DNA from: Nibricoccus sp.
Lineage (GTDB): Bacteria; Verrucomicrobiota; Verrucomicrobiia; Opitutales; Opitutaceae
Direction: 5' to 3'
Assembly (NCBI GenBank): GCA_047602425.1
Contig: JASGHG010000001.1
Coordinates: forward strand, 2,048,001-2,112,000
Length of the DNA stretch: 64,000 nucleotides
Shown here: positions 34,462 to 59,254 of the stretch, piece after piece
Layout of the letters: each line of letters opens with the position of its first letter
Position numbering within the stretch: position 1 is the stretch's first letter
The notes under the pieces: model-generated
Told to the model about the DNA's origin: nothing
Seen by the model: only the letters and a program-made list of their open reading frames with translations
Databases searched by the model: none
Made by a program: the position numbers and the translations under genes

Positions 34462-36561
34462 ATGCGCTTTTTGCGCCTATCCCTTATTGTCCTCATTGCA
34501 ACCGCTTCGGTCGCGACTGCAATCGCGTCGATCAGCGAGGCATTTACTTGGACGGGCTCGGCCGGGGATCAGAACTACAATAATCCGTCCAATTGGCTCG
34601 GCGGCGTGGTTCCGCCCAACAATGGCAGCGCCACACTCATCTTCGGCGATGCCGCTGGCACCCGTGTCACGCTACCGCTCGTGCTCGATGTCGCCCAGAT
34701 CCAGTTCGAAAACAGTCCGTCCAAAAACTATACGTTCAACACCGGTCTGCTCACGTTCCTCACGGTCCGAAACGGCCTGAGTGTCACTTCTGGCGGTAGC
34801 ACGTTTCTCGGCGAAAACATCACGCTCAACATCGCCGACACGCAGTATTTCTACGTTGCTTCCGGCAAACTCGATATTGCCGGCGGTCTCATCGGCGGCG
34901 GTGATCTTGTGAAATCCGGCGGCGGCCTGCTTCGTCTCGACGGTTTCAATCTCCTGCATGGCAGCACGCAGGTCGATGGCGGCGCGCTTATCTTTTCCAA
35001 CACTTACGCGCTGCCTTCGGGCAGCATTTCCGCCTCGGCCAACGGTTACGTCGGCGCGGAAAATCAGAGCACGCTCAAACTCATGCTCGGCCAGCTCAAC
35101 TCCAGCACTTTCGCCGGGTCCATTGGCCTCGATTCCGCGCCAGGAGGCTCGCTCTCGACTTTCACCGATCAAATCGACGTCACCAATCTCACCAACTACG
35201 CCGGCCTCGGTTCAACCACGGTGGCGAAACTCACCGGCAATTTCCGCGTCTCTTCCAACCAGGACTACCGTTTCAGCGGCGGCGCCGGCACTCTCTTCGT
35301 CCAGACCAATCTCACGAATTACGGCTCCGACCTGCGTCTCACGTCGGTCCATGGCACCCCGCTCAGCGTTTTCCTGCAGGGTTCGAATAATTTCGGCGGC
35401 AGCGTCAACGTCCTCAATTCCGTCCTCGTTCTCGACAGCCATCAGGCAGTATCCAGCGGAAAAGTACTGAACATCGACGGCCCCGGCTACATCGGTGCCA
35501 CTGAGCGTTTTGGCGGTTCAACCTCCAGCTTCCTCTCCCAGCTCAAGGCCGGAAGCCCCAACTCCATCGCCGGCTTCGACTCCACCAACATTTCCGCGCC
35601 CCGCACGATTACCGAGGACATTGACCTCTCCGTCGGCGGCACGCGCAACGACCCTTACTACCTCGGCACCACGACCAAGGTCACGCTCACTGGCAAACTC
35701 ACGCCGACCAATGGCGATTCGCTTTATCTCACCGCAGTCAAAGGTGGGCATCTGATCGTTGGTTCGACCTTGGGCAACAACATCCCCGGCGTCGTGGTCG
35801 GTCAGGCCAATTCCTTCGATCCGCAAGGCGGCACAGTGGAACTCACCGGCCACAACAACTACTCCGGCGGCACCAAGATCCTCGGCGGCACCCTCCGCGC
35901 CAGCAATAACTCCGCTCTCGGCACCGGCTCCGTCGACGTCGGCTCGGGCGCCACGCTCGACATCAGCTCCGGAACCAGCATCTCGAACCAACTCGACATT
36001 GCCTCCGGTGGACGTCTTTCCGGCCGCGGCGCCATCGGCACACCCGGCGGAGTTTACTTTGGAAACGGAGCCATCCTTTCGCCCGGCGGCCCCGGCAGCA
36101 TCGGCACCCTCACGTTTAATTCCAAGGTCACCTTCGGCTCCGGTTCGGTCCTCGAATTTGACATCGGCAACCTCAACGCCGGTGCCGGCATCGGCTGGGA
36201 CCTCGTCAACGTCAACAGCCTCGTCAATCTCGCCGCCCAAGGTGGTTCGCTCATCACGCTCGATCTCAAGACGCTCACGCTCGGTGGCTCCGCGGGCTTG
36301 CTTACGGGTTTTGACGCCACGCAGTCATATAGCTGGCTGTTTCTCTCCGCGAACAACATCTCGGGTTTCTCCAGCGACAAATTCGTCTTCGATACCTCCG
36401 GTTTCGCCAACAGCCTCGGCAACGGAAACTTCTTCGTCACGCAGGGAAATGCCGGCCTTTCGATTAATTTCACCCCGGTACCCGAGCCCGGCACCTACGC
36501 GCTCTTCGCTCTTGGTCTTGGCATTCTTGGCCTGCGCGAACTCCGCCGCCGGCGGAAGTAA
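34462..36561 (+). CDS. PEP-CTERM surface protein with autotransporter-associated beta-strand repeats
   Basis: Signal peptide, L.G.NNYSGGT.I.GGTL repeats, C-terminal VPEPGTYAL-TM-RRRRK. Confidence 0.92.
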   Translation: MRFLRLSLIVLIATASVATAIASISEAFTWTGSAGDQNYNNPSNWLGGVVPPNNGSATLIFGDAAGTRVTLPLVLDVAQIQFENSPSKNYTFNTGLLTFLTVRNGLSVTSGGSTFLGENITLNIADTQYFYVASGKLDIAGGLIGGGDLVKSGGGLLRLDGFNLLHGSTQVDGGALIFSNTYALPSGSISASANGYVGAENQSTLKLMLGQLNSSTFAGSIGLDSAPGGSLSTFTDQIDVTNLTNYAGLGSTTVAKLTGNFRVSSNQDYRFSGGAGTLFVQTNLTNYGSDLRLTSVHGTPLSVFLQGSNNFGGSVNVLNSVLVLDSHQAVSSGKVLNIDGPGYIGATERFGGSTSSFLSQLKAGSPNSIAGFDSTNISAPRTITEDIDLSVGGTRNDPYYLGTTTKVTLTGKLTPTNGDSLYLTAVKGGHLIVGSTLGNNIPGVVVGQANSFDPQGGTVELTGHNNYSGGTKILGGTLRASNNSALGTGSVDVGSGATLDISSGTSISNQLDIASGGRLSGRGAIGTPGGVYFGNGAILSPGGPGSIGTLTFNSKVTFGSGSVLEFDIGNLNAGAGIGWDLVNVNSLVNLAAQGGSLITLDLKTLTLGGSAGLLTGFDATQSYSWLFLSANNISGFSSDKFVFDTSGFANSLGNGNFFVTQGNAGLSINFTPVPEPGTYALFALGLGILGLRELRRRRK

Positions 36562-36598: not shown

Positions 36599-36684
36599 GG
36601 CAGGGACGACCCGCCGGTCGTCGGAAAATGTATCCTTGGGAAATCCCCGCTCCCACACGGACGTCCCGGCGGTCCGTCCCTACC
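36599..36684. repeat. GTAG-type REP doublet (second family)
   Basis: GGCAGGGACGACCCGCCGGTCGTCGG ... inverted copy reading GGTAGGGACGGACCGCCGGGACGTCCG on the minus strand. Confidence 0.75.
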
Positions 36685-36704: not shown

Positions 36705-37289
36705 TTATCTGTCTGAGCTAGAACGTATATTTTTCAGACGAAAATGGTCAAAATTGCCTGCAAAAGCTCGTTGTTTGGCTGTTTGTCTCAATTGCGTAGC
36801 CGCAGTCTCAATTGCTACGTTGTTTGTCTCAATTGCTAGGCTGCCTGTCTCATTTGCTAGGCTGTTTGAGCCGGTTGCTAGCGTGTGCGAGGTCGTTGCT
36901 TTGGCGTACGCAGCCATTGCTTTCGCGTCACAGGTCGTTGCTAGACCGTTCGTGCTCATTGTTTGGACGTTCGACCTAGTTGCTCGACGGTACGATCTCG
37001 TTGCTGCGTCCTCAGCGGTCATTGTTTTGTGGTCAGAGCTCATTGTTTGCGTGTCAGCGGCTGTTGCGCGGCTGTTCGCATGAGTTGTTTCAATGTTTGC
37101 GTGAGTTGTTTCGACGTCTGCATGAGTTGTTTGGATGTCTACATGAGTTGCGTGGCCGTTTGCCTGCATTGTTTCGATGTTCGTGCGAGATGCGCGGCTG
37201 TCTGAGTGTGTTGCTTGGCTGTCCGGACGAGTTGCGGCGCTGTTCGGATGAGTTGTTTGAAGGTTAGCAACTGTTGCGACGCCGTTCAT
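36705..37289 (-). other. possible heptad-repeat ORF over the array ([ND]xx[AT][TM]xx); coding status uncertain
   Basis: Open frame from ATG 37289 with GGAG upstream; heptad phase is lost at the 20-nt unit; atypical codon use. Confidence 0.35.
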
Positions 37290-37290
37290 T
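36770..37290. repeat. degenerate 21-bp periodic tandem array (~25 units)
   Basis: TTG recurs exactly every 21 nt from 36812 to 37274 (one ATG variant at 37190), with GT 10 nt after each TTG; two further units at 36771 and 36792 across one 20-nt unit. Confidence 0.9.
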
Positions 37291-37313
37291 TCAGCTGCTC
37301 CGCCGCTCCGACG

Positions 37314-37348
37314 AAAAAACACGCCTGCCGGATTTCCAGCAGACGTGT
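37314..37348 (-). terminator. Rho-independent terminator of the sigma-vWA operon
   Basis: Minus strand ACACGTCTGCTGG-aaat-CCGGCAGGCGTGT-TTTTT. Confidence 0.85.
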
Positions 37349-37400: not shown

Positions 37401-39737
37401 TCACCCGCTGATGATGCCTTTGGCTTTCCTCACGAGGTCCATGAATTCGTGACGGTAGCCATTCGCATCTTCGCCGAGACCGGACTCCGCCCAGCCTTGC
37501 ACCGCCTCGAAGGAGGTCGTGCCTTTGTGCGGCGACTCGCGCAGCAACATGCCGAATCCGGCAACGGCGGCAGCGAATTTGAAGTCCTGGCTCGCATTCG
37601 CGAACACTTCGCCGATGTCAATCAGCGGGAATTCCAACTTGCTGCTCACATCGGAAGACGGGGCTTTGTAGCGAAGCTTCAGGGTGAGTAGTTCGGGAGA
37701 CGCGTCGGCTTTGGCGGTCTTGGCATCTTTTTTGGCGGTGGCGGGCTGGTATTTCAATGGGTCGACCGCGGGGATGTCCGTCGGCGATTCGACGCCGACC
37801 GGCACGATTTCGTAGAGCGCTGTCACGGTGTGGCCCGCGCCGATTTCGCCGGCGTCGATCTTGTCGTTGTTGAAATCCTCCTTCTTGAGCATGCGGTTCT
37901 CGTATCCGATCAGGCGATACGACTGGACCCTGGCGGGGTTGAACTCGACCTGGATCTTCACGTCCTTCGCGATCGTCACGAGCGTGCCACTGAGCTGATC
38001 GGCGAGGAGCTTTTTCGCCTCGGCAAGGTTGTCGACGTAACCGTAGTTGCCGTTGCCCTTGTCGGCGAGCTTCTCGAGCGTGGAGTCCTTGTAGTTGTTC
38101 ATGCCGAAACCAAGCGCCGTAAGGAACACGCCGGACTTCGCCTTTTCCTCGACGAAGCGGATGAGGTCGCCCTGGTTGGTCACGCCGACATTAAAATCGC
38201 CGTCGGTGCAGAGCACGACGCGGTTGGCGCCGTCCTTGATGAAGTTGGCCTTGGCGATGTCGTAGGCGAGCTGGATGCCCATCGCGCCGTTGGTCGAGCC
38301 GCCCGGCCGCAACGCGTCGATCGCGTCGAGGATTTCCTGCTTCTGCGAGATTGGCGTCGAAGGCAGCGCGAGGCCCGAGGCTCCGGCGTAGACTGCAATG
38401 GCCACGCGATCGGTCGGCTTGAGCTTCTCGACGAGCACGCGCATCGATTCCTTCACGAGCGGGAGTTTATTCGGCTCGTTCATGGAACCCGAAACATCCA
38501 ACAGGAACACAAGGTTCAGCACGGGACGTTCCACTTCGGAAAGTTCGCGGCCCTTCAGCCCGATGCGCACGAGGCGGTGCTGCGGATTCCAAGGCGCGCT
38601 GGCGACCTCCATCGTGGTGGCGAATGGCTTGTCGTCTTTTGGCGCAGTGTAGTTGTAAGGGAAATAATTGACCATTTCCTCGATGCGCACGGCATCGCGC
38701 GGCGGACGGCGGCCGAAGTTCAGGAAGCGCCGCAGGTTCGAATACGCCGCGGTGTCGACATCGATGGAGAACGTCGAAAGCGGATTGCCCGCGGTGTCGA
38801 GATAGCTGTTATCGACAATCTGGTCGTAGGTCTCGGTGTTGAAGGACTTGGCGGCTCCGCCGACGGCGGCGACAGCGACTTCCGCCGGCATTTCCATGCG
38901 AGGCGGTTCGGTGGCGACGCTGAAACTATTCAGCGCAATCATCCCTTCGTTGTTTGAGGCCAGCGGCGGCGGAGCGGAAGGCACTCCACGAGCCCGCCCT
39001 GCAGGCGCCGCTGCGGCTTCCTGGCGTTTTTGCATTTGGGAGCGGACTGAATTCTGAACCACCGCACCCACGTCGCTCGCCGCCAAGGAGCCCAAACTTT
39101 GATTAAACGTAACGGTGCTCGGCTGCTGCAATGCGAGCGCAGTCGCGCTGCCCTGGCGCTGCCCTTCGACATTCATTTTTTCGAGCTGTACGACCTCGGG
39201 ATACATGTCGTTTTTGGCGTCCGGCTTCGCCTTATCCGCGAAGGATGGCAGGTGGACGACGTCATCGCCGTCCTTCTTCAATTCGACCTCGATCAAACCG
39301 CGGCTGATCGCATCGAGCTTGGCCATCTCCGCGGCCATTTTGCGCTGTTGCACCGCCTCGGCTTTCAGCTGGGCGAGCCTGACGTCCTCACGTTTCAATT
39401 TTTGATCCTGCAAAACGAAGATTGCCGCCACACAGGCGGCGGCCAAACCGCCCACGAGGTAGAAGGGCAGGCGCAGAAACTTGCGCGGACGATAGGCTTC
39501 GCGCGCAGTCGGCGGTGCATCCTTCACTTGCGGCGGCGGCACGACGAAGGGCAAGGGCTCCTTGGCGAGGGCGGCGGAGAGATCGCCGCTGAGCGCGCGG
39601 ATTTGCGCGACGGTTGCCTGCGCGGCGGGATTGTCTTTGAGCGCCGCTTCAACGGCCACGTGTTCGGCGGCGTCGAGTTCGCCGAGGGCATAGGCGGTCA
39701 GGCGGGGATCGTCGGGCGTGAGATGGGAAATTTTCAT
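37401..39737 (-). CDS. anti-sigma-like N-terminus fused to YfbK-type vWA/DUF3520 protein
   Basis: LTAYALGELD anti-sigma-like helix, TM, PLSTFSIDVDTA.Y, LVFLLDVSGSM (MIDAS), TIAKDVKIQVEFNP, DAGEIGAGH.VTALYE. Confidence 0.88.
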   Translation of the reverse strand: MKISHLTPDDPRLTAYALGELDAAEHVAVEAALKDNPAAQATVAQIRALSGDLSAALAKEPLPFVVPPPQVKDAPPTAREAYRPRKFLRLPFYLVGGLAAACVAAIFVLQDQKLKREDVRLAQLKAEAVQQRKMAAEMAKLDAISRGLIEVELKKDGDDVVHLPSFADKAKPDAKNDMYPEVVQLEKMNVEGQRQGSATALALQQPSTVTFNQSLGSLAASDVGAVVQNSVRSQMQKRQEAAAAPAGRARGVPSAPPPLASNNEGMIALNSFSVATEPPRMEMPAEVAVAAVGGAAKSFNTETYDQIVDNSYLDTAGNPLSTFSIDVDTAAYSNLRRFLNFGRRPPRDAVRIEEMVNYFPYNYTAPKDDKPFATTMEVASAPWNPQHRLVRIGLKGRELSEVERPVLNLVFLLDVSGSMNEPNKLPLVKESMRVLVEKLKPTDRVAIAVYAGASGLALPSTPISQKQEILDAIDALRPGGSTNGAMGIQLAYDIAKANFIKDGANRVVLCTDGDFNVGVTNQGDLIRFVEEKAKSGVFLTALGFGMNNYKDSTLEKLADKGNGNYGYVDNLAEAKKLLADQLSGTLVTIAKDVKIQVEFNPARVQSYRLIGYENRMLKKEDFNNDKIDAGEIGAGHTVTALYEIVPVGVESPTDIPAVDPLKYQPATAKKDAKTAKADASPELLTLKLRYKAPSSDVSSKLEFPLIDIGEVFANASQDFKFAAAVAGFGMLLRESPHKGTTSFEAVQGWAESGLGEDANGYRHEFMDLVRKAKGIISG

Positions 39738-39757: not shown

Positions 39758-40282
39758 TCAGGTGCGCTGCGCGGCGTATTCGGCGCGGAGGCGGGTGACG
39801 GCGTGGTGGATCAAAACGCCGACGTGGCTCACGGAGTGAGCGGTGATGCGGCTGATTTCCTTGTAGCTGAAGCCGCTCTGGAATTTGAGTCTTAGTACTT
39901 CCTGCTGGTTCGGCGGTAGCTTGTCGATCATGCGCAGGAGGGCATCGTGGGTTTCCTCCGCTTCGAGGGAACGCGTTGGCCGGGGGTCCTCGGTGCTCAC
40001 GCGCTCCAGTTCGCCTTCTTCAAAGCGTTTCATGCGCCCCTCCTTCCGCATGACGTCGAGCGCACGATGGCGGCAGACCGTGAAAAGCCATTCGGCGAGG
40101 TGGCCGTTAACCGCCGCGGGCGGCTGGCCCATGAGTTTAACAAAAGTATCCTGAACGATGTCGCGCGCGCGATCGGGGTCGCCGACCAGACGCGTCGCGT
40201 AGCGAGTGAGCGGCGATTGATAGTCCGCCACCGCGTTCTGCACAAAATTCTCAGCGTGTTCATGGGAGTTATCCCGGTTCAT
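39758..40282 (-). CDS. ECF RNA polymerase sigma factor
   Basis: ARDIVQDTFVKL, WLFTVCRHRALD, LPPNQQEVL.L...GFSYKEIS. Confidence 0.93.
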   Translation of the reverse strand: MNRDNSHEHAENFVQNAVADYQSPLTRYATRLVGDPDRARDIVQDTFVKLMGQPPAAVNGHLAEWLFTVCRHRALDVMRKEGRMKRFEEGELERVSTEDPRPTRSLEAEETHDALLRMIDKLPPNQQEVLRLKFQSGFSYKEISRITAHSVSHVGVLIHHAVTRLRAEYAAQRT

Positions 40283-58876: not shown

Positions 58877-59254
58877 TTAGTAACGACGGTCACCGCGATC
58901 GCCGCGGTCGCCACCGCGACCACCGAAGCCGCCACGGCGTTCGCCGCCGCCGAAGCCACGGCCACCACCGCCGCCACCACCAAAGGAACGGCCAGCGCCT
59001 TCTTCCTTCGGACGGGCTTCATTGACGGTGAGCGTGCGACCACCGAGGTCGACGCCATTGAGCTTTTCAGCAGCAGCCTTCGCCTCTTCAGGCGTGCCCA
59101 TGGTGACGAACGCGAAACCGCGGGGGCGGCCGGTCATCTTATCCATGGCGACGTAAACATCGGTCACGGTGCCAAAAGCGCCGAAAGCCGTACGGAGTTC
59201 GTCTTCGGAGGTCTTGAAGGACATGTTGCCGACGTAGAGTTTGGAATTACCCAT
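58877..59254 (-). CDS. RRM RNA-binding protein with Gly/Arg tail
   Basis: RNP2 LYVGNM, RNP1 [11 protein letters not shown] tail. Confidence 0.95.

Follow-up and report, generated by a model that had tools for sequence, protein, structure and literature searches.

A polar 21-bp repeat array of Nibricoccus sp., likely a gene-less copy of an array class linked to small all-helical proteins

The array and its position

Why some bacteria carry many repeats of a fixed length of 20-21 nt and of unrelated sequence is a question that Subirana and Messeguer (PMC8161180) could answer only by conjecture. A stretch of 64,000 nt from the genome of Nibricoccus sp. (the window) raises it at a single locus: the spacer between two convergent genes, encoding a PEP-CTERM/PATR and a vWA/YfbK protein, holds an intergenic array of about 25 degenerate 21-base repeats, which we call A1. 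Our analysis makes A1 a likely gene-less member of an array class found elsewhere in front of genes for small helical proteins, which are predicted to bind the arrays. The features of the locus, in window coordinates, are these:

34462..36561, plus strand: left flanking gene, PEP-CTERM/PATR surface protein, ending toward A1 and outside the element
36600..36683, no strand: REP doublet of the GTAGGGACG family, which has about 75 motif matches in the genome; the left copy is degenerate
36705..37289, minus strand: open frame across A1, 194 aa, its ATG having a GGAG 8 nt ahead of it; probably no gene
36720..36769: AT-rich tail at the end of A1; the matching end is also AT-rich in the related arrays A2 and A3
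36770..36794: last part of the array, with a single unit of 20 nt and a final core, offset by one base
36795..37298, no strand: the array A1, made of 24 units of 21 bp in one register, with RCAAY-N5-C-N-RAC-N6 as the consensus on the minus strand; polar, with no dyad symmetry (P 0.90)
37314..37348, minus strand: hairpin and T-run, likely terminator of the vWA gene
37401..39737, minus strand: right flanking gene, vWA/YfbK protein, ending toward A1 and outside the element
39758-40282: ECF sigma gene, behind which the vWA/YfbK gene stands

An earlier note on this DNA had described a strict array with two short cores, and its counts hold when units are numbered from 36811: T and G occupy positions 3-4 in 23/23 units, the full TTG is found in 22/23 and the second GT, at positions 12-13, in 21/23. 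The unit profile upholds the consensus RTTGY-N6-GTY-N7 and adds a third conserved position that had gone unnoticed, G16 (20/23 of the same units). The further units proposed beyond the main register are also there, as the 20-nt unit and one more core that take the array to about 36770. Two other claims need a qualification. By geometry the cores do lie 10 and 11 bp apart, yet their likeness to each other does not exceed chance (half-period test, P 0.28). As to the boundaries, the REP doublet is present, and so are the hairpin and T-run proposed as a terminator, but these are absent from the list returned by a terminator scan. The hairpin sits in a 106-nt minus-strand stretch that folds at z -3.8, and A1 begins about 15 bp past it.

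All 24 units are distinct, with a mean pairwise identity of 0.52, neighbours being closer (0.59) than distant units (0.49). Even the variable positions are 0.39-0.41 identical between units, and there too adjacent pairs are closer than far ones. The profile score of A1 over four units is 87, against a maximum of 3.2 in the shuffled genome. Base composition is strongly skewed between strands, the minus strand counting 174 A, 157 C, 111 G and 62 T. An Rfam search of the window gave no match, and a sigma-70 promoter scan around A1, including the AT-rich tail, gave no site. A second period-21 signal in the window, at 58889-58999, was discarded as the Gly-rich tail of a protein gene (58877-59254; RNA-binding, RRM-like by eye).

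The cores are constrained and are not what neutral decay has left. Across the 75 units of A1-A3, at a mean identity of 0.55, four of the 21 columns are conserved at 95% or more, and none of 2000 neutral coalescent simulations reached four such columns; for A1 alone the same comparison gives P 0.02. The RCAA core is also retained between this genome (G000) and two of the genomes with related arrays, G041 and G764.

In the congener G003 the equivalent two-gene spacer is about 370 bp long and without such an array. G002 and G004 carry the flanking genes apart from each other, the vWA gene having no array behind it. The G003 spacer (L280:2088-2460) contains a tandem repeat of 7 bp, further short repeats that are palindromic, and a REP doublet, and looks like a hot spot for repeat elements. 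Its period-21 score of 28.7 was rejected as a by-product of the 7-bp repeat, which scores 55.1 at period 7. The vWA gene of G003 seems about 530 bp short in its middle.

Dispersed arrays and their partner genes

A search for like arrays, suggested in the earlier note, found them in this genome and in three others. The profile scan returned four family arrays here, A1-A4, and none in the shuffled genome. Alignments among A1, A2 and A3 give 61-65% over about 480 bp, and that of A3 with A4 gives 91% over 211 bp, the homology stopping at the array ends in each case. Related arrays occur in G004 (two), G041 (four) and G764, Oleiharenicola sp. Vm1 (six); long DNA matches are found only inside G000, while matches of 30-50 nt and shared cores extend to these three genomes. 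The family is patchy, with a DNA match in 3/61 relatives and its three-core pattern in 3/301 genomes of the order. The six arrays of G764 share a nearly identical 3' half, differ in their 5' halves and show length differences of whole units; five of them lie among REP copies.

Several observations concern single arrays or wider scans. In G764, a REP-derived stretch is inserted within one 21-bp array (L320). About five 21-bp units of another consensus come before A3 (G000:C1 about 4543970-4544080, L002) and make it a 32-unit composite, and an IS481-type transposase gene adjoins this composite. Scanning with the A1 pattern 'GCAATTGAGAC' gave no match in viral contigs or metagenome contigs. A generic three-core pattern has at least 121 genome matches across many phyla, most of which were set aside as homogeneous minisatellites or coding repeats of other families; L049, in G764, was the only one taken further as A1-related. 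A match in G382 (L272) is a chance one inside a gene.

The A1 family is a small part of what this genome carries. A sequence-blind scan for period 21 returned 32 regions, from which four genic ones were removed and to which one was added, giving 29 arrays of many unrelated consensus types, five of them weak (segment score below 25); about 25 arrays are of sequence types other than that of the A1 family. Eleven of the 29 have a REP nearby, as against 41 of 539 large spacers (P 1e-5), a neighbourhood that is only partly specific to arrays.

The class, rather than the A1 family, has a recurrent neighbouring gene, for which the earlier note had proposed to look. Nine of the 29 arrays stand just upstream of genes resembling either p1 (five arrays), of about 120 aa, or p2 (four, two of whose genes are weak matches, E about 1e-5), of about 220 aa; both are unnamed families of proteins predicted to be all-helical, with basic tails. 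Among 66 distinct p1 loci from metagenomes, a period-21 array was found upstream of the gene in 39 of the 48 with enough upstream DNA and downstream in 0/41; as a control, 5/600 ordinary genes have an array upstream. In related genomes the array is present at 23/30 scored gene loci, the misses being mostly fragments, broken genes or scores just below the cut. The gene-linked module is defined by an array of about 8-27 units, a size into which A1 falls, and a p1- or p2-family gene 50-600 bp downstream. Each p1-linked metagenome array carries its own consensus, and the period stays at about 21 across these unrelated types. The A1 family, by contrast, was found beside a p1 or p2 gene at 0/16 loci, none of the 39 metagenome or 23 genome arrays linked to a gene has its consensus, and G764, with its six related arrays, has no p2 match and one distant p1 only. 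No p1 or p2 gene was found in the flanks of the generic three-core matches either. Having the architecture of such an array and no adjacent partner gene, A1 would work like the module, and we file it as an orphan and not as a full member.

Clusters of p1 and p2 look-alikes are many in Acidobacteriota, Verrucomicrobiota and Gemmatimonadota, and p2 alone has 2713 representatives at 50% identity. In the phylum p2 genes are rare (3/401 sampled genomes); they are present in G000, G004 and G041. Neither protein matched a Pfam family or a specific PDB fold, results which leave room for one of either kind: the models are generic helical bundles (best Z 6.5 and 9.3) in which we recognise none of the DNA-binding folds, and there is no ribbon-helix-helix or winged-helix match among the hits. 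No p1 was found in the viral contigs searched, and p2 has no match to viral folds at E below 0.001. We considered p2 as two fused p1 units and dropped the idea, p1 matching the halves of p2 at a probability below 1%, equal to reversed controls. A weak repeat between the N- and C-terminal halves of p2 itself (P0002; E 0.004, probability 8%) goes with similar helix layouts in its model.

The arrays linked to the two families differ in symmetry. Dyad symmetry is found in 33/34 metagenome and 16/17 genome arrays linked to p1, but in 0/4 arrays linked to p2 and in 0/3 of A1-A3, which are polar. The association of p2 with polar arrays is drawn from few cases and has an exception, the p2-like-linked array 1769691, which scores as a dyad (P 0.02). 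In 49 p1 arrays the mismatches between the arms are G.T and A.C in equal measure (183 versus 181), and the arms abut without a loop in 32; together with the symmetry, this argues for recognition as double-stranded DNA rather than as RNA hairpins. Arm covariation in the p1 arrays is slight (1899 versus 1826 expected). One array upstream of a p2 gene (L292, G041:C408) has a period of 22 bp, scoring 79.5 against 20 at period 21, a change that fits the helical phase and not codons.

Between array and gene, no sigma-70 promoter is enriched at p1 loci (0/39). A motif GAAAYG-N15/16-CTAAT, chosen post hoc, lies 62-67 nt before the start in 7/38 of them (L194, L216, L225, L227, L235, L246 and L264) and in none on the other strand; a conserved GGCGG...CCGCC hairpin follows it, and the motif may be an ECF-sigma promoter. 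At G000:C1:1276562-1276930 a p1 gene with one disrupting TGA has a decayed array upstream and transposase-like ORFs beyond.

Some arrays without a gene have relatives with one. In G000, orphans 59989 and 848132 resemble the p2-linked array 3345077 at 71-72% over about 280 bp, orphan 172514 and, through it, 169111 match the p1-linked array 1276242, and orphan 4076689 matches the p2-like-linked 1769691. Several orphans are therefore copies of gene-linked arrays, so that a gene-less array can derive from the module. The homology ends at the array boundaries in these pairs, and orphans prefer convergent gene ends (11/20, versus 130/539 spacers; P 0.003); taking these together with the preference for REP neighbourhoods, we conclude that entire arrays have been copied to places behind genes where they are tolerated. 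An ORF beside orphan 848132 (G000:C1:848712-849221) looks by eye like an HUH/REP-associated transposase, and is outside the four Y1_Tnp matches of the genome.

What the array may do

The earlier note had offered a phased protein-binding array as one possibility, and a DNA-level reading of this kind is the best fit, with binding as its prediction. We give an even chance to A1 being a track of double-stranded DNA onto which a p2-like helical protein is loaded in trans, each footprint covering two helical turns. The model starts from what is observed, a strict register, constrained cores, dispersed arrays and a gene paired with an upstream array, and from there predicts binding, an oligomeric state and a function. 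The units of A1 are exactly 21 bp, or two turns, with two fixed cores. Both p1 and p2 would bind their arrays as double-stranded DNA, p1 as a symmetric dimer on palindromic units, and p2-like proteins in a head-to-tail row along a single face of the helix, on polar units such as those of A1. A gene-linked array would regulate its own gene's promoter or wrap it. Orphans such as A1 would be copies left behind gene ends, most likely through REP-associated or ectopic recombination, and still bound by the protein in trans. Several results pull the other way: none of the 16 loci of the A1 family has a partner gene at its side, no gene-linked array shares the A1 consensus, G764 with its six related arrays gave no p2 match, the protein models lack a recognisable DNA-binding fold, the polar rule for p2 comes from few arrays with one dyad among them, and a frame through A1-A3 is free of stops, with a GGAG before the ATG in A1.

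It is also conceivable, if on the unlikely side, that A1 is a dispersed minisatellite, selfish or neutral, copied from one gene end to another along with REP clusters or by gene conversion, that binds nothing useful and whose link to a partner is historical or absent. Such an element would be expected to look much as the family does: patchy among relatives, missing in G003 from the orthologous spacer, where other repeats lie instead, enriched near REPs, recently copied (A3 and A4, and the six arrays of G764) and devoid of a partner gene at its 16 loci. Yet its cores are far more conserved than neutral duplication yields, RCAA has been kept across three genomes, and the period is held at about 21 in arrays of unrelated consensus.

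Less probable still is that the array is transcribed, for instance by read-through, and acts as RNA, either processed into short units or as a protein-bound repeat RNA, in the manner of the arrays of TIGR, VIPR or type III toxin-antitoxin systems. A1 is polar, strongly skewed between strands and placed right behind a gene, and type III toxin-antitoxin loci have an array-before-gene layout, which the order found at p1 and p2 loci resembles. Transcription has also been reported for 52-nt repeats of Bacillus, according to the sections of PMC8161180 used here. But the structured or processed RNA array that the earlier note had entertained finds no support in A1, neither strand of which folds better than its shuffles (z 0.42 and 0.33), and the palindromic arrays of the class show no G-U or strand bias. 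Moreover, the variable parts of A1 are related from unit to unit, unlike acquired spacers, the terminator-like hairpin separates the vWA gene from the array, the ECF-like motif, post hoc as it is, lies between array and gene at the seven p1 loci that have it, and no Nop or Cas1 match was found in the genome.

That the minus-strand frame encodes a Thr/Ala/Asn-rich heptad-repeat protein of 194 aa, with the array as its coding sequence, is very improbable given the fixed wobble bases at rare codons, a pN/pS of 1.18 and stops in related arrays, and A1 is probably not a gene, as judged from its sequence. The frame, described earlier as open, is indeed free of stops from 36705 to 37289, and it is open in A4 as well. 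In A1-A3 the heptad frame has no stop where 5.3 are expected (column shuffle, P 0.001, from units that are non-independent), TAA is absent among its 30 NAA codons (P 0.016), and internal unit lengths are all multiples of three, which together with the ribosome-site-like GGAG of A1 is what a coding sequence would show. Against this, the Ala/Thr codon ends in A as had been noted, GCA or ACA in 75/77 units of A1-A3, although each makes up 9.7% of the Ala or Thr codons in genes. The comparison of synonymous and non-synonymous changes, another check put forward earlier, gave the value above for the open frame (49 close unit pairs), with no purifying selection on amino acids and no freedom at the wobble positions, so the constraint is on nucleotides, as the earlier note had supposed. 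Two other frames have pN/pS of 0.30 and 0.44 but contain 10 and 6 stops, and we read their low values as an effect of core placement. All six related arrays of G764 share one in-frame TAA, which already weakens the coding reading, and their copies differ by 21 non-synonymous versus 6 synonymous codon changes; three of the four arrays of G041 have an in-frame TGA. Finally, the 194-aa peptide has no Pfam match, the 123 candidates for a homologue yielded none, neither A2 nor A4 has its own ATG, and 9/39 arrays of the class have stops in all six frames.

Relation to known repeat systems

A1 had been put forward as an undescribed element, which does not hold for the class: constant-size tandem repeats of 20-21 nt with variable sequence are already in print (PMC8161180). 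In the sections of that paper drawn on here, they are defined by at least four repeats, mostly of identical length, with short conserved motifs in each unit; they are generally non-coding, and a genome has several families, alike in length but not in sequence, that are largely species-specific with exceptions. A1 shows the features that we could compare with those sections, namely the length, a motif with a variable remainder and several families per genome (our 29 regions); the non-coding character applies to A1 and its relatives through the pN/pS value and the relatives' stops, A1's own frame being open. The authors remark that the unit length equals two helical turns and suggest a protein that polymerises along the DNA, and the text of those sections names no partner gene or protein and makes no division into palindromic and polar arrays. 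Here, two protein families are attached to such repeats, their cores are found to be constrained and whole arrays to have been copied to new gene ends. Our literature search found no paper on the pairing of gene and array, with the proviso that supplements may list such arrays. A preprint (10.64898/2026.10.21.760802) has no 21-nt class in the part consulted, where clusters with a period that is a multiple of three and a codon peak are excluded.

Two systems in which proteins bind phased repeats deserve comparison. Plasmid iterons (P1, F, R6K, RK2) are bound by Rep monomers and consist of few near-identical copies beside the Rep gene in the origin. Like A1, they are direct repeats about two turns apart, with two cores on one face and an AT-rich end; unlike them, A1 has 24 highly degenerate units in a chromosomal spacer between convergent genes, and a Rep3_N search found no Rep3 gene in the genome. 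In type II and III partition (parC/ParR, tubC/TubR), a small protein coats phased repeats upstream of its own gene, achieving both autoregulation and a filament. This partition centromere offers a works-like model for the gene-linked arrays, with the differences that no motor NTPase is linked to p1 or p2 in the listed G000 loci, that the two proteins match neither of the folds searched, ribbon-helix-helix and winged-helix, and that A1 itself is gene-less.

The claim that A1 is neither CRISPR nor TIGR is borne out by its period, by variable parts that are short and related and by the lack of a Cas1 match in the genome. CRISPR arrays alternate near-identical repeats with unique, unrelated spacers of about 30 nt, whereas the cores of A1 are 3-5 nt and its variable parts 5-6 nt; Cas1, the one Cas protein searched, has no match in this 99.97% complete genome. 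REP/BIME units are GTAG-led palindromic hairpins that go with RAYT transposases. A1 resembles them in its dispersed intergenic copies behind gene ends, often near REPs, in a genome with four Y1_Tnp matches, but it is a long row of direct repeats without GTAG-led hairpins, and the REP doublet is a separate neighbour. TIGR arrays, which work with Tas proteins, are closer in plan, each tandem unit having two conserved boxes and two variable segments, in units of 36 nt according to the part of PMC12045711 used here. A1 shares the two boxes and two segments, at 21 instead of 36 nt. The Nop domain PF01798 has no match in the genome, a search that may miss Tas, and the neighbours of A1 are the PEP-CTERM and vWA genes.

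To the question of fixed-length repeats these results contribute two candidate proteins and a rule that can be tested, by which palindromic arrays go with p1 and polar ones with p2. Should the binding model be true, p1 and p2 would stand for proteins that coat DNA and are sequence-diversifying, a family new to science that could supply orthogonal protein-DNA pairs; A1 itself is the weaker, orphan case. A wider version, tentative and rather doubtful, would have the two-turn repeats of bacteria as tracks to which a large superfamily of helical proteins, as yet without a name, binds. Each paralogue would carry its own 21-bp code along, palindromic for the dimeric p1 type and polar for the p2 type, and orphans such as A1 would serve as additional nucleation sites spread over the chromosome. 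The whole would be a protein-DNA filament system, either centromere-like or nucleoid-organising, whose recognition sequence is recoded rapidly.

Repeats of this length are also found far from the A1 family. Homogeneous intergenic 21-bp arrays occur in many Nostoc genomes, and those at L039, L059, L088, L093, L094, L104, L111 and L114 have stops in the heptad frame. At L100, a 21-bp array of 60 units with an adjacent identity of 0.60 lies within a 1011-aa ORF of a proteobacterial MAG.
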